34,509 nt of DNA from a virus (IMGVR_UViG_2541047783_000002); one strand, 5' to 3'. Positions 29,253 through 32,065 are shown, counted from the stretch's first letter. The notes: generated from the sequence alone by a model not told the origin. Numbers and translations are program-made.

Positions 29253-29522
29253 ATGAAATCCACCACAGGTATCAACCAGCAAATCAGCAAAGTGCAGTCA
29301 GCCATTATGGCGCTTAAGGCGACGAACACGGATGTACAAAGCATCACCATCAGGGGTAACAAACCTGTCATCCGCGTTTCCCGGAGTGCGCATTGCATGC
29401 GCATGCTTGAGCAGGGAAAGGCCTGTTATCTGTATACCGGACATGACAACAGGGGACGTTTCCGTCAGGGCGTTTTCGAACTGCACGGCTGTCGCGTCGT
29501 GTGGCCGGAATCTTTGTGGTAA
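29253..29522 (+). CDS. hypothetical protein (89 aa)
   Basis: Start 3 nt after B stop (translational coupling). Confidence 0.4.
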   Translation: MKSTTGINQQISKVQSAIMALKATNTDVQSITIRGNKPVIRVSRSAHCMRMLEQGKACYLYTGHDNRGRFRQGVFELHGCRVVWPESLW

Positions 29523-29549
29523 TCAGCATAACCGGAGAAATCATAAAAT

Positions 29550-30080
29550 ATGGCAAAAAGTACAAAAGGGGCAAAACGTATCAAGTCCGCAGCGGCACTC
29601 TGGGTACCAGGGACACGCGAAGAGGTCATTGAGGGCATCAGACTGCTCGGTGACGCACAACGTGAACTGGTCAGGGCTGAAACAGAAATGAATGACGCCA
29701 TTGGCGATATCACCGCACGTTATGCCCCGCTCACCGAGAGCCTGAAAAAACGCATGGCCGAACTGCAGTCCGGTATTCAGACATGGTGTGAGGCACACCG
29801 TGATGAACTGACCGGCAACGGGAAGGTGAAGTTTGCTAACCTCACCACCGGCGAGGTGCAGTGGCGAAACCGTCCGCCGTCAGTCAGCATTCGCGGAGCG
29901 GATAATGTTATTGAACTACTGAGACGTCTGGGGCTTGAGCGCTTTATTCGTGTAAAAGAGGAAATAAATAAAGACGCCATCCTGAATGAAAAAGAGGCCG
30001 TGAAAAATATTCCCGGTATTACCATAAAAAGCGATATTGAGGATTTTTCAATAATTCCTTTTGAGCAGGATGTGCAGTAA
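29550..30080 (+). CDS. gam: Gam-like host-nuclease inhibitor (DNA end-binding)
   Basis: Strong similarity to recalled Mu Gam: MAKxxKRIKSAAA..., ETEMNDAI, RPPSVSIRG, GITIKSDIEDFSIIPFEQ. Confidence 0.85.
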   Translation: MAKSTKGAKRIKSAAALWVPGTREEVIEGIRLLGDAQRELVRAETEMNDAIGDITARYAPLTESLKKRMAELQSGIQTWCEAHRDELTGNGKVKFANLTTGEVQWRNRPPSVSIRGADNVIELLRRLGLERFIRVKEEINKDAILNEKEAVKNIPGITIKSDIEDFSIIPFEQDVQ

Positions 30081-30122
30081 ACACACCACGTTAATTATTT
30101 AATAAAAACATTTTCTTTTTTA

Positions 30123-30159
30123 TTCCGGCGTCAGCGCCGCGGGCTTCTGCACGCCGGAA
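30123..30159. promoter_or_regulatory. inverted repeat (9-bp arms TTCCGGCGT / ACGCCGGAA, 19-nt loop) between gam and next gene
   Basis: Seen directly; no downstream U-tract on either strand so not a canonical terminator. Confidence 0.3.
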
Positions 30160-30174
30160 ACAGGAGAATTCATC

Positions 30175-30369
30175 ATGATATTTAAATGTATTCAGTGCGA
30201 AAGAGATATTACAACCCTGCGTTTTCACAGCGCCATCGCCGTGATGTCCGGTAAATACCACATCCCTGCGGTACGCGTCACCCTGGTCTGCCCGTACTGC
30301 AGCCAGCATTTTTCGGCAGATGTGCCCGTTATGGAGTTCTCACGCCCGGACAGGGAGGACGCGCAATGA
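30175..30369 (+). CDS. small zinc-ribbon protein (CxxC...CxxC)
   Basis: 64 aa with C-IQ-C at N-terminus and C-PY-C near residue 39-42. Confidence 0.4.
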   Translation: MIFKCIQCERDITTLRFHSAIAVMSGKYHIPAVRVTLVCPYCSQHFSADVPVMEFSRPDREDAQ

Positions 30370-30638
30370 TTACCCCACAGGAAGCACATCAGCGCGCCCG
30401 CGCCCTTGTTGAACGGTACCTCAACGAGTGTGAATGCCGTGACCTCACCGATATCATGTGCGCCCTGACGGCGTTAATCAGCATGGCCACGCAGGCCATT
30501 GTGGCGACTAACGGAAAGGAGGCCGCCCTGCAGATACTGGTGAACACACTCACCCACGCGGCAGAGCACGAGGTGCCGTACCGGATGGAAATCACTGCAG
30601 AAGGCGATCTGCACATCATTGTTGACCGGAAGCACTGA
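30366..30638 (+). CDS. hypothetical protein (90 aa)
   Basis: ATGA start/stop overlap with upstream gene. Confidence 0.4.
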   Translation: MITPQEAHQRARALVERYLNECECRDLTDIMCALTALISMATQAIVATNGKEAALQILVNTLTHAAEHEVPYRMEITAEGDLHIIVDRKH

Positions 30639-30647
30639 GGGCGCGGT

Positions 30648-30953
30648 ATGACACGGAACACCATACTCACACGCACTGCCCTCTATCGTCTGGCCCTGCA
30701 GCGTTTCGGGCCGGACGCACAGGCCCTGAAACTGACAGAAGAGGCCGCTGAACTGGCGGCCAGTGCCGCCCGCAACCTGAACGGACAGGGCAGCGAAAGT
30801 GACCTCGCGGCAGAGCTGGCAGACGTGGAAATCATGACAGAGCAGTTGCGCCTTCAGGGGATGGGCCGGCTGATTGACTTCCACAAACAGAAAAAACTGG
30901 AACGCCTTGCCGCACGGCTGGGCGTCATGTACACCGGAGATACTGAACAATGA
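30648..30953 (+). CDS. putative MazG-like all-alpha NTP pyrophosphohydrolase
   Basis: Pattern KLTEEAAELA...SESDLAAELADVEIMTEQL resembles the EExxE...E/D..D metal-binding helices of MazG-type enzymes; assignment from memory only. Confidence 0.4.
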   Translation: MTRNTILTRTALYRLALQRFGPDAQALKLTEEAAELAASAARNLNGQGSESDLAAELADVEIMTEQLRLQGMGRLIDFHKQKKLERLAARLGVMYTGDTEQ

Positions 30954-31633
30954 CAGACCAGAATAAACACATTGAGAAATTGAAAAAGTTGCTGGCGCTG
31001 GCCGCATCCGGCAACCCACACGAGGCCGCTCTGGCACTGCGCCGTGCCCGTAAACTGATGGATGTTCACGGCATCACACATTCCGACATTGCCATGAGTG
31101 ATATTGATGAAACCATCAGTCATTACTGGCCGACAGGCAGTCTCCGTCCACCGCGCTACATGCTGGGCCTGATGAACATCATCCGCGAGGCATTTGGTGT
31201 TAACTCCATCATTCACCCCGGCACATATCCGGGTGTGGGGTTCTACGGCAACCGGGAACGTGCGGCACTGGCTGCATACACCTGGGAAGTGCTGGCCCGT
31301 CAGCTGAAAAAGGCGCGTCAGCAGTATATCAGCACACAGAACAAAAGAATAAAAACTGCCACCCGTACCAGCCGTGGTGACCAGTTTGCTGAAGGCTGGG
31401 TGCTGGCCGTTATCAGTGAAATACAGTCCTTCGCCCTGACCGATGACGAACGTGAACTGATGCAGCAGTGGCTGGAACATAAATACCCGCAAACGCAAAC
31501 CACCAGAGCGCGTAAACCGGGAAGAAGCCGCAATGGCGACGCCTCGCGCTATGCGGGGTTTCGTGAAGGGCAGAACGTCAGACTGCACCGCCCGGTCAGT
31601 GGGCAGGCACAACAGAAACTGGAGGCCAGATGA
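30950..31633 (+). CDS. hypothetical protein (227 aa; N-terminal KLKKLLALAASGNPHEAALALRRARKLM motif)
   Basis: Overlapping start with upstream gene; family unknown. Confidence 0.45.
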   Translation: MTDQNKHIEKLKKLLALAASGNPHEAALALRRARKLMDVHGITHSDIAMSDIDETISHYWPTGSLRPPRYMLGLMNIIREAFGVNSIIHPGTYPGVGFYGNRERAALAAYTWEVLARQLKKARQQYISTQNKRIKTATRTSRGDQFAEGWVLAVISEIQSFALTDDERELMQQWLEHKYPQTQTTRARKPGRSRNGDASRYAGFREGQNVRLHRPVSGQAQQKLEAR

Positions 31634-31860
31634 TTACGCTATCAGGTAAAAGCCGGAAATTAAAAGCCTGCCGAATATCTGCCAGATACCTTTTTGCCCG
31701 CGCCTTTTTTAAGAACGTCAGGCCGGGGATCACAATTGGTGTTATTGCCGGACGCGAACAGGTTGAAAAATACATGTCAGGTGCATGGTGGGATAACGAC
31801 CCTGTCATTGCTGCCCGTAATATTCATATCAGTTGGGGGGATATTCAGAATGACGGCTGA
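31630..31860 (+). CDS. hypothetical protein (76 aa)
   Basis: ORF with GGAGG SD. Confidence 0.3.
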   Translation: MITLSGKSRKLKACRISARYLFARAFFKNVRPGITIGVIAGREQVEKYMSGAWWDNDPVIAARNIHISWGDIQNDG

Positions 31861-32065
31861 ATCTGTTGTATGTGCCCTGTTCTGGTATTGTTTTGTCGGT
31901 TGGTGTACTGCTGAACTGCACCGCCGTTCAGGGTTTTATTCACGTTACAGTGGTGCCGGCTACTGGATTAGCTGGTCGGTGATGTTCCTGTGCTGGCCTG
32001 TGGCGCTTCCTTTATATGTCGATTATATCGGTGGCGCAGGTAAAAGGAGCAACGATGATGACTAA
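31850..32065 (+). CDS. small membrane protein (71 aa, two predicted TM helices)
   Basis: Start set at internal ATG 31850 of ORF 31694..32065; hydrophobic segments VVCALFWYCFVGWC and WISWSVMFLCWPVALPLYV. Confidence 0.4.
   Translation: MTAESVVCALFWYCFVGWCTAELHRRSGFYSRYSGAGYWISWSVMFLCWPVALPLYVDYIGGAGKRSNDDD

Follow-up and report, generated by a model that had tools for sequence, protein, structure and literature searches.

The region from 29253 to 32065 is assigned, with a probability of about 0.72, to the accessory ("semi-essential"-type) middle part within the early operon of a transposable E. coli prophage of the BcepMu type. In the window, i.e. the whole analysed stretch of 34,509 nucleotides, this block comprises eight genes on the same (+) strand between the gene of a B-like transposition ATPase and gemA, and its ends coincide exactly with the first start codon and the last stop codon. 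The block and its flanks contain the following features:

28084..29250, + strand: B-like transposition ATPase (ExeA/AAA_22 type), left flank (PF13401, E 3.7e-20; RefSeq "ExeA family protein")
29253..29522, + strand: p89, 89 aa, basic, pI 10.1 (phrog_2041, E 1e-36)
29550..30080, + strand: Gam, host-nuclease inhibitor of the Mu Gam family (PF07352, E 5.6e-41; phrog_491, E 1e-73)
30113..30168, + strand: structured element within the 94-nt Gam-Zn64 spacer, U-rich tract and GC hairpin
30175..30369, + strand: Zn64, 64 aa, presumed zinc ribbon with two CxxC pairs (phrog_3401, E 1.6e-40)
30366..30638, + strand: p90, 90 aa, acidic (phrog_3691, E 4e-51)
30648..30953, + strand: MazG101, 101 aa, single domain (phrog_2245 "NTP pyrophosphohydrolase", E 4.8e-34)
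30950..31633, + strand: DUF2786 and DUF7168 protein, 227 aa (PF10979, E 4.4e-11; PF23771, E 1.9e-26)
31630..31860, + strand: p76, 76 aa, basic (phrog_3681, E 1.3e-53)
31850..32065, + strand: TM71, 71 aa, aromatic-rich and hydrophobic (phrog_6436, E 5e-15)
32058-32507, + strand: GemA, right flank (PF06252, E 9.9e-41; phmmer against Mu GemA, E 3.5e-24)
32479-32865, + strand: Mor, right flank (PF08765, E 5.2e-41; phmmer against Mu Mor, E 1.9e-11)

A sequence-only reading of this DNA had listed five of these genes, namely those for Gam, a CxxC protein, a MazG-like protein, a 227-aa and a 71-aa protein. Every one of them was found at the expected place, and the inventory has to be extended by p89 (29253-29522), p90 (30366-30638) and p76 (31630-31860). 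The short length of the ORFs (64-101 aa) and the missing Pfam family for most of them would be compatible with some being chance reading frames, but this has practically no probability left and is refuted by the conservation data. A PHROG family was matched by all eight ORFs (E 5e-15 to 2e-76), all of them carry a RefSeq annotation, and each is preceded by a Shine-Dalgarno-like sequence. The ORFs were intact in about 40 independent loci and showed purifying selection, with dN/dS values of 0.04-0.46 among the E. coli copies. Those with homologues in Klebsiella phage KP12 showed identities of 52-91% and dN/dS values of 0.14-0.20 in this comparison.

Of 5426 complete E. coli genomes, 640 contained the block, corresponding to about one in eight, and the host genes adjoining the prophage differed between genomes. 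Escherichia phage PhiKM, which is classified as Bcepmuvirus, showed 95% identity over 94% of the block. Upstream of it, genes for an HTH repressor, a winged-HTH regulator, a DUF3102 protein, an rve transposase and the AAA_22 ATPase were found. Between a promoter-like site (24753-24781) and a strong terminator (33146-33178), no internal promoter or terminator above chance was observed on the coding strand. Judged from this layout, the block would lie within one long early transcription unit. Loss of the repressor is expected to result in a single long transcript, which would start at the early promoter (about 24.8 kb), cover the regulators, the transposase A, the ATPase B, the eight block genes, GemA and Mor and stop at the 33.15-kb terminator, while most of the small genes would be translated by coupling to their upstream neighbour.

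In order from B>p89 to TM71>GemA, the spacers amount to 2, 27, 94, -4, 9, -4, -4, -11 and -8 nt. Counting an overlap or a gap of 10 nt or less as a coupled junction, the previous statement that all genes are translationally coupled holds true for seven of the nine junctions, but not for p89>Gam (27 nt) and Gam>Zn64 (94 nt). The 94-nt spacer harbors the structured element at 30113-30168, which showed a minimum free energy of -26.6 kcal/mol (z -3.67 compared to 200 shuffles) and whose outer stem pairs with the Shine-Dalgarno sequence of Zn64 (30162-30168). The hairpin core is nearly identical in KP12 despite a different upstream gene, and an equivalent post-gam hairpin with another stem sequence was found in Mu and at least three more lineages. 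As in this phage, gam of Mu is followed by a spacer of about 95 nt that combines an AT-rich tract with a GC hairpin. The element is not a canonical terminator, and an Rfam match was not found. The structured spacer and the two junctions without coupling suggest a regulation beyond the simple model of one transcript.

The operon layout also bears on a possible function as lysogenic-conversion or superinfection-exclusion genes, which would be expressed while the prophage is repressed and would benefit the host; the small membrane protein would be an example. TM71 and a 71-aa protein from an insertion hot spot are probable membrane proteins of small size, as exclusion factors commonly are, and the prophage is frequent in E. 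coli. However, the genes occupy the central part of the early operon, downstream of both transposase A and ATPase B. Since the coding strand shows no internal promoter-like site above chance and most genes are coupled, the block genes should be silent under repression. In addition, a 214-aa membrane protein beyond the terminator (33214-33858) is a better moron candidate, so that a function of this kind is considered highly improbable for the block.

Compared to the other block proteins, Gam is the most clearly assigned. It matched PF07352 with 140.4 bits (gathering cut-off 28.3) over profile positions 1-148 of 149, and its identity to Mu Gam amounts to 62% (phmmer E 4.8e-67). Among the E. coli copies, gam showed a dN/dS of 0.04. 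Gam-family proteins are established inhibitors of host nucleases. By homology, the protein is predicted to bind double-strand DNA ends and thereby to shield the phage DNA from RecBCD-type nucleases.

The start of p89 lies 2 nt past the stop of B, which makes it the first gene after the transposition ATPase in the early operon. The same position is taken by kil in Mu, which starts 18 nt past the end of B, and both genes are small. The p89 family consists of proteins of 85-105 aa (54 representative clusters) with the pattern ..RPVIRI..C..L..G.A.Y...G.FRQG.F..GCRVVWSESLH. While a single-sequence search (phmmer) of p89 against Mu Kil gave no significant match, the alignment of the family profile with Mu Kil by hhalign reached a probability of 83.7% (E 8e-6, 70 columns, 19% identity). 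The Kil score of 30.8 compares to a maximum of 17.1 for 26 other proteins and of 20.4 for 200 shuffled Kil sequences. Moreover, the Kil PHROGs 2743 (10 of 34) and 6381 (7 of 34) were the second and third commonest matches among the p89 family members (best E 6e-4). Based on the profile match with its clean controls, the Kil PHROG matches and the position after B, p89 is assigned as a remote homologue of Mu Kil, although PHROGs places it in a separate family listed as "unknown function". The alignment covers residues 4-74 of Mu Kil and includes the common motifs RP(V/I)(I/L)xI and, at the C-terminus, GC(R/Q)(V/I)(V/I)W. With 89 aa, p89 is 15 residues longer than Mu Kil (74 aa), and the ...SESLH tail is extra in most family members. 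Expression of Mu kil is lethal and turns E. coli spherical (PMC3961180). By homology, p89 would be made alongside B and is predicted to poison host growth or shape.

For MazG101, the proposed assignment as a MazG-like NTP pyrophosphohydrolase is borne out by fold and motifs, but not by the thresholds of the curated profiles. The match to Pfam PRA-PH reached 14.4 bits and thus stayed below the cut-off of 21.3, TIGR03188 (NCBIfam) was matched with an E of 0.04, and a profile search of the PDB sequences found nothing. Of 24 homologues, 19 matched PRA-PH (best E 4e-4) and 14 matched MazG (best E 0.019). In the hhalign alignment with E. coli MazG, the catalytic motifs line up with LEETYE...ELGDL at a probability of 0.7%. 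The AF2 model (pLDDT 82.3) shows the helical-bundle fold of the superfamily, and in the paired acidic metal-binding motifs (EExxE ... ExxD) the residues E31, E32, E56, D59 and E61 do not vary among 21-24 homologues, while E35 hardly varies. Judged from conserved motifs and modelled fold, MazG101 is therefore a likely member of the all-alpha NTP pyrophosphohydrolase (MazG/HisE PRA-PH) superfamily. Its homologues occur solely in BcepMu-like phages of Enterobacterales. The earlier view that none of the genes is assignable from the sequence was hence too pessimistic, as a likely role can now be given for Gam, the Kil-like protein and the enzyme with MazG/HisE fold. The region itself is of an ordinary kind for a phage, and these annotation details are what is new.

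Atd1 of Pectobacterium phage PcCB7V and the cyanophage MazG are, like MazG101, phage-encoded single MazG-type catalytic domains with paired acidic motifs, but the substrates of these two characterised enzymes differ. Atd1 is a (p)ppGpp hydrolase, which depletes this nucleotide and confers protection from TIR-STING and retron-TIR (bioRxiv 10.1101/2022.06.09.495361), whereas the cyanophage MazG acts on dGTP and dCTP and does not hydrolyse (p)ppGpp (PMC6850273). MazG101 may hydrolyse a nucleoside triphosphate or an alarmone, e.g. (p)ppGpp or a (d)NTP, and could thereby bend host nucleotide or stress signalling toward the phage.

The named homologues of p90 are nearly all from E. coli (51-100% identity), so that the protein appears to be restricted to this species. 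Neither KP12 nor the fusion protein P0091 contains it, and there the Zn-ribbon gene adjoins the MazG-like gene. Within the block, p90 evolves fastest, with a dN of 0.069 and a dN/dS of 0.46 compared to 0.04-0.24 for its neighbours except p76 (0.43). In codons 56-67 the dN/dS rises to 1.19, and 22 protein alleles were counted in 43 loci. No match to PDB or Pfam was found for p90.

These observations could fit the proposal that the block genes serve host takeover or counter-defence. In its strongest form, the block would mainly be a counter-defence island, in which Gam blocks RecBCD, the MazG-like enzyme acts like Atd1 and removes (p)ppGpp or an immune nucleotide against abortive infection, and p90 together with the variable cassettes inhibits strain-specific defences of E. 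coli, the diversity reflecting an arms race. In favour of this can be cited the nuclease inhibition by the Gam family, the action of the MazG-like Atd1 against TIR defences (bioRxiv 10.1101/2022.06.09.495361), the E. coli-restricted, multi-allelic p90 with the top dN/dS, the insertion hot spots and the allelic replacement at p76 and TM71. However, no known defence or anti-defence family was matched according to PADLOC, NCBIfam and the PHROG annotations, PADLOC yielding only a chance match to JetC (E 0.024) in the block. The lack of (p)ppGpp hydrolysis by the cyanophage MazG (PMC6850273) also speaks against it. Furthermore, the overall dN/dS of p90 is below 1, and its N-terminal half has a high dS, which speaks for old lineages of alleles and for recombination, not for rapid positive selection. 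We therefore consider a mainly counter-defensive block as a tentative and rather doubtful alternative to an accessory early region. Still less likely is the combined scenario of a counter-defence island in about one eighth of E. coli genomes, in which p90 would serve in an arms race by inhibiting a strain-variable immunity protein, an Atd1-type MazG would disarm alarmone- or nucleotide-dependent abortive infection, and the post-gam hairpin shared with Mu would act as an RNA switch timing the downstream cassettes.

Zn64 contains the cysteines C5xxC8...C39xxC42. Each of the two pairs recurs in every E. coli variant as well as in the KP12 homologue, whose identity is 52%. The dN/dS amounts to 0.08 among the E. 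coli copies and to 0.20 compared to KP12. While the two conserved CxxC pairs agree with the proposed zinc ribbon, the search against curated zinc-ribbon families gave only sub-threshold matches in Pfam and NCBIfam, and a BLASTP comparison with Mu Com resulted in an E of 0.11.

The 227-aa protein, strongly basic with a pI of 10.1 and a net charge of +13, comprises DUF2786 (43.0 bits, cut-off 23.9) followed by DUF7168 (92.8 bits, cut-off 25.5). The conserved-looking N-terminal helix remarked on before thus corresponds to the helices of DUF2786, and the remainder is DUF7168. The same pair of domains, or part of it, was found in all 57 homologues. The AF2 model (pLDDT 84.9, pTM 0.76) had no solved structural relative, and its 32 BFVD matches belong to very diverse phages and are all uncharacterised. 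A DUF2786/DUF7168 protein also occurs in a non-Mu early operon of Komagataeibacter.

For p76, an identity of 75% and a dN/dS of 0.15 were determined compared to KP12, while the E. coli copies showed a dN/dS of 0.43, and in three loci (L006, L029 and L044) it is swapped for an unrelated 135-aa gene. TM71 contains two hydrophobic segments (about 5-21 and 38-57) with an Arg-rich loop between them. Its Kyte-Doolittle maximum for 19 aa is 1.51, just under 1.6, and its Wimley-White octanol maximum is 14.2 kcal/mol compared to 5.9 or less for every other block protein. By hydropathy alone, TM71 is probably a two-helix membrane hairpin. It occurs in two allelic forms, which are 41% identical and of the same architecture. 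The PHROG annotations for the families of Zn64, p90, the DUF2786/DUF7168 protein, p76 and TM71 all read "unknown function"; these five proteins are conserved, selected cargo.

The basic DUF2786/DUF7168 protein, the Zn-ribbon protein and the basic p76 might instead be accessory replication or transposition factors acting on nucleic acid, parallel to the HU-like and SSB-like genes of BcepMu. At the equivalent place, BcepMu indeed carries an HU-like DNA-binding gene as well as one marked as SSB in its record, and in both KP12 and BcepMu, DUF3164 takes the place that Gam, the DNA-end binder, has in this phage. On the other hand, the KH similarity lies below any usual threshold with no GxxG loop evident, and DUF2786 proteins are also found in non-transposing temperate elements and in very diverse phages. 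In KP12, an unrelated gene replaces DUF2786, which indicates that the latter is not needed for this phage type. Altogether, such a function is unlikely.

The comparison with relatives showed that the accessory block is a string of exchangeable cassettes. Short conserved junctions bearing ribosome-binding sites would be the places where genes are exchanged, inserted or lost. The interval between MazG101 and the DUF2786 gene contains zero, one or two extra genes across the loci, with the junction microhomology TACACCGGAGA, and the MazG C-terminus TGDTEQ in the window is the tail of a deleted 71-aa gene. BcepMu, PhiKM and KP12 (a BcepMu-like contig) share the backbone order of this phage, i.e. 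transposase, B-like ATPase, small gene, ..., GemA and Mor. PhiKM has one additional 71-aa gene and the other TM71 allele. KP12 has p89, the Zn-ribbon, MazG-like, p76 and TM71 genes in common with the block, but has DUF3164 instead of Gam, lacks p90 and carries another gene in place of DUF2786. In BcepMu, gp03-gp07 lack Gam, DUF2786 and others and comprise DUF3164, the HU-like gene and DUF2528 in their place. The BcepMu block also carries a gene annotated "pyrophosphatase"; between gp06 and MazG101 no detectable similarity was found. BcepMu gp07 matched the p89 profile only weakly and at the N-terminus (probability 22%).

With respect to Mu, the suggested analogy to the semi-essential region applies to the position between the transposition ATPase and GemA/Mor, but does not extend to homology of the interior genes. 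Mup06-09 and Mup11-15 gave no significant phmmer match to the block genes and belong to different PHROGs, and the Mu region has neither a MazG-like nor a DUF2786 gene. The transposase (rve/Tn552-like) and the ATPase (ExeA/AAA_22-like) are also unlike those of Mu, as is the genome, which has the BcepMu layout with divergent early and late genes. Homologues of Mu genes are kil, as a remote relative, gam (E 4.8e-67), gemA (3.5e-24) and mor (1.9e-11). The semi-essential region of Mu (Mup05-Mup17) is transcribed with A and B and toxic to the host, and its deletion restores viability after infection (PMC3325207). As in the phage described here, it consists of many small genes on a long early transcript between the ATPase gene and gemA/mor.

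The block of small early genes between the B-like ATPase and GemA is an accessory early region of a common and already annotated Mu-like prophage, real and ordinary in kind. Of 5426 complete E. coli genomes, 640 carry the prophage, and in 619 of these the coverage reaches at least 80%. The block region is 95% identical to Escherichia phage PhiKM, a phage placed in Bcepmuvirus. The host genes adjoining the prophage differ between genomes and are in some cases interrupted, as is expected of a transposable phage. Late genes occupy the minus strand between position 1 and about 22 kb, and the early operon runs along the plus strand between about 24.8 and 33.2 kb. 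On the 5' side of the block, genes for a winged-HTH protein, a DUF3102 protein, an rve-type transposase and an AAA_22/ExeA-type ATPase were identified, the last of which is the analogue of B. The elements of the early region are as follows:

24753-24781, sigma-70-like promoter site
upstream of the block, minus strand, HTH repressor-like gene
29253-29522, plus strand, p89 (89-aa protein)
29550-30080, plus strand, Gam
30081-30174, post-gam spacer of 94 nt with a hairpin at 30113-30168; counterparts in Mu (L049) at 6326-6423 and in the BcepMu-like contig of Klebsiella phage KP12 (L047) at 3222-3300
30175-30369, plus strand, Zn64 (presumed zinc-ribbon protein)
30366-30638, plus strand, p90 (90-aa protein)
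30648-30953, plus strand, MazG101 (MazG-like protein)
30950-31633, plus strand, DUF2786/DUF7168 protein of 227 aa
31630-31860, plus strand, p76 (76-aa protein)
31850-32065, plus strand, TM71 (71-aa protein, probably a membrane protein)
33146-33178, strong terminator-like hairpin

The limits assigned to the block by the sequence-only reading, 29253 and 32065, mark exactly the start of the first and the stop of the last gene in this eight-gene plus-strand run. Its inventory named five of the genes correctly but overlooked p89, p90 and p76. The open reading frames are genes and not chance reading frames: the RefSeq annotation contains the same eight, all of them (8/8) matched PHROGs with E values from 5e-15 to 2e-76, and all were intact across about 40 related IMG/VR loci with dN/dS values of 0.04-0.46. 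The genes common to the block and the KP12 contig showed identities of 52-91% and, where dS could be estimated, dN/dS values of 0.14-0.20. The spacers at the successive junctions comprise 2, 27, 94, -4, 9, -4, -4, -11 and -8 nt; judged from these lengths, seven of the nine junctions fit the statement that all genes are translationally coupled, and the other two do not. Inside the block no promoter- or terminator-like sites above chance were detected, and the PADLOC, NCBIfam and Rfam family libraries gave no matches for it.

A scan of 1.84 billion representative proteins placed p89 in a family whose members are 85-105 aa long and share a conserved pattern with GCRVVWSESLH at its end. The profile of this family (34 members) could be aligned to Mu Kil with an hhalign probability of 83.7% and an E value of 8e-6; the 70 aligned columns span nearly the whole of Kil. 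Kil reached a profile score of 30.8, and the maximum was 17.1 among 26 other proteins from Mu and the window and 20.4 among 200 shuffled Kil sequences. Independently of this comparison, the 34 members matched most commonly their own phrog_2041, followed by phrog_2743 (10 members, best E value 6e-4) and phrog_6381 (7 members), the latter two being two of the three PHROG families designated 'Kil'. Furthermore, p89 and Mu kil each directly follow the transposition ATPase gene. Mu kil turns E. coli spherical (Waggoner et al. 1989, cited in PMC3961180), and removal of the Mu semi-essential early region restored viability after infection (PMC3325207). Based on the alignment, the PHROG matches, the gene position and the Mu kil phenotype, p89 is therefore predicted to be a host-toxic early protein, likely of the Kil type; PHROGs classes its family as unknown. 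The top match of p89 in the representative library was P0141, a cadherin-repeat protein of 4728 aa, with 41 weak stretches and a summed E value of 6e-63; homology was rejected, as the summed similarity of beta-strand patterns was judged the probable cause. BcepMu gp07 was likewise not accepted as a relative, reaching a probability of only 22% with the p89 profile.

For Gam, the match to PF07352 (140 bits) and the 62% identity to Mu Gam settle the family identity at the level of sequence. Mu Gam is established to bind DNA ends and to block host exonuclease, and the Gam of the block would be expected to act in the same way. In KP12 (L047 2610-3221) and in BcepMu (gp05, L053 1928-2545), a DUF3164 gene occupies exactly the slot of Gam, which hints that the two may be functional alternatives.

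The spacer downstream of gam folds into a stable hairpin with a minimum free energy of -26.6 kcal/mol (z -3.67), in whose outer stem a U-rich tract is paired with the Shine-Dalgarno sequence of Zn64. Despite DUF3164 upstream, the hairpin core is almost unchanged in KP12 and carries one compensatory change from C-G to U-A. In the Mu spacer, which could be aligned as well, an AT-rich tract is followed by a GC hairpin whose stem differs, then by GAAACAG and the ribosome-binding site. In 40 distinct post-gam sequences taken from Mu-like contigs, such a hairpin was found in at least five sequence types; it was missing from lineages whose next gene abuts gam. The hairpin is not a canonical terminator and matched no Rfam family. 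In the cross-lineage covariation analysis (MAFFT, RNAalifold), the differing stems were not aligned in register.

The most unusual gene of the block is p90. Its named homologues come nearly all from E. coli, and it is absent where the zinc-ribbon gene abuts the MazG-like gene, as in KP12 and in P0091, a fused zinc-ribbon/MazG-like protein. Prophage relatives in other genera were also seen without the gene. In 43 loci 22 protein alleles occurred, and both the dN of 0.069 and the dN/dS of 0.46 are the maxima of the block, compared to a dN/dS of 0.43 for p76 and of 0.04-0.24 for the remaining neighbours. The genes flanking p90 are 94-100% identical. Positive selection was rejected, with the overall dN/dS at 0.46 and values above 1 confined to one 12-codon window. 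In the N-terminal half dS is high as well, which suggests old alleles and recombination; the shuffling of old alleles by recombination accounts for the pattern no less well than an arms race would. An assignment as a CxC...HxxxH zinc protein was discarded, since these residues vary (alleles C24Y and H68N).

In Zn64, both CxxC pairs are kept in every variant and in KP12, and a search of curated families gave no match. A role as a Com-like translational activator was considered and dropped: Mu Com gave a non-significant BLASTP E value of 0.11, and the homologues were too few for a profile.

MazG101 was put forward as a putative MazG-like NTP pyrophosphohydrolase, which holds at the level of fold and motif but not at that of a curated family, the single-sequence Pfam match to PRA-PH being weak (14.4 bits versus a cut-off of 21.3). 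This level of assignment results from the combination of the weak Pfam match, the match to phrog_2245 (NTP pyrophosphohydrolase, 4.8e-34), the sub-threshold matches of the homologues (PRA-PH in 19 and MazG in 14 of 24) and the motif. E31, E32, E56, D59 and E61 are invariant among the homologues and E35 is nearly so, and in the alignment with E. coli MazG these acidic residues fall on its catalytic LEETYE...ELGDL. At the fold level, MazG101 is accordingly assigned as a putative small pyrophosphohydrolase, and its active-site motif is intact. Its homologues are confined to BcepMu-like phages of Enterobacterales; BcepMu gp06, annotated as 'pyrophosphatase', was compared as a possible relative and showed no similarity. 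Atd1, a phage MazG-like enzyme, hydrolyses (p)ppGpp and is protective against TIR-based defences (10.1101/2022.06.09.495361); a cyanophage MazG prefers dGTP and dCTP and leaves (p)ppGpp untouched (PMC6850273).

The 227-aa protein comprises DUF2786, the N-terminal helical hairpin, and DUF7168, both above gathering thresholds. Its 32 significant matches in BFVD are all uncharacterised and come from very diverse phages, and a 42%-identical relative lies in a non-Mu, cI/Cro-type early operon of Komagataeibacter. A comparison with genome contigs yielded a 388-nt fragment only, and the literature search found no function reported for either domain. The protein is strongly basic (pI 10.1, charge +13), and one guess would be that it binds nucleic acid. 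For p76, the analyses gave no hint of function. TM71 contains two aromatic-rich hydrophobic stretches with an Arg-rich loop between them and occurs, among otherwise near-identical prophages, as two alleles (31850-32065) of about 41% identity and the same layout. Searches of PDB sequences with single sequences and with profiles returned nothing credible for MazG101, DUF2786, the p89 family and p90.

In related prophages, the interval between MazG101 and the DUF2786 gene is either free of extra genes or holds one, for a 71-aa membrane protein, or two, of 127 aa and 71 aa. This insertion hot spot lies at 30930-30953 in the window, at 3190-3790 in the related locus L002 and at 4695-4925 in L003. 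The junctions share the microhomology TACACCGGAGA. In the window, MazG101 is a chimera whose C-terminus TGDTEQ is the tail end of the 71-aa membrane-protein gene missing there, so that the window represents the deleted, or never-filled, form. The junction motif ACCGGAGA occurs four times versus 0.9 expected, and four occurrences were reached in 1 of 100 shuffles; with this weak enrichment it was rejected as a recombination signal. Furthermore, a 135-aa gene takes the place of p76 in three loci, and in another p76 is interrupted. All cargo genes belong to PHROGs of unknown function or showed no PHROG match.

Mor (32479-32865), to the right of the block, likewise occurs in two allelic classes of about 80% identity among otherwise near-identical prophages. 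Just past the early terminator and near the prophage end, a gene at 33214-33858 in a low-GC stretch (about 45%) encodes a 214-aa protein with N-terminal hydrophobic segments, which matched phrog_12870 (unknown function) and had no match in Pfam or PADLOC; it looks like a moron. Beside the repressor region, at 23508-24272, lies a gene for a D12-class N6-adenine DNA methyltransferase (PF02086, E 8.5e-29), for which an anti-restriction or regulatory prophage function is possible.

Transposable phages are known to carry a reservoir of host-takeover and anti-defence genes in their early accessory regions; few such regions have, to our knowledge, been worked out. A counter-defence role is a reasonable candidate for the block, and p90, being fast-evolving and species-restricted, would be the first choice. 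Since the prophage is so widespread in E. coli, any activities of its early genes would bear on the outcome of induction, toxicity after infection and the interplay with phage defence in many natural strains. The general understanding of such regions is unchanged by the present findings. New are the Kil assignment of p89, the fold-level support for a MazG-like enzyme, the description of the cassette junctions, the fast evolution of p90 and its restriction to E. coli, and the conserved post-gam hairpin, in a structured spacer that Mu shares.

Compared to the block, KP12 carries DUF3164 instead of Gam and an unrelated 128-aa gene instead of DUF2786, while BcepMu itself comprises gp07, the 'pyrophosphatase', DUF3164, an HU-like gene and DUF2528. 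With Mu the block and its right flank have only kil (remotely), gam, gemA and mor in common, whereas Mup06-09 and Mup11-15 of Mu are without counterpart and belong to other PHROGs. The proposed analogy to the Mu semi-essential region is therefore borne out by position and by the homology of kil, gam, gemA and mor but does not extend to the interior genes, which makes the block a positional, partly homologous analogue with a different interior.
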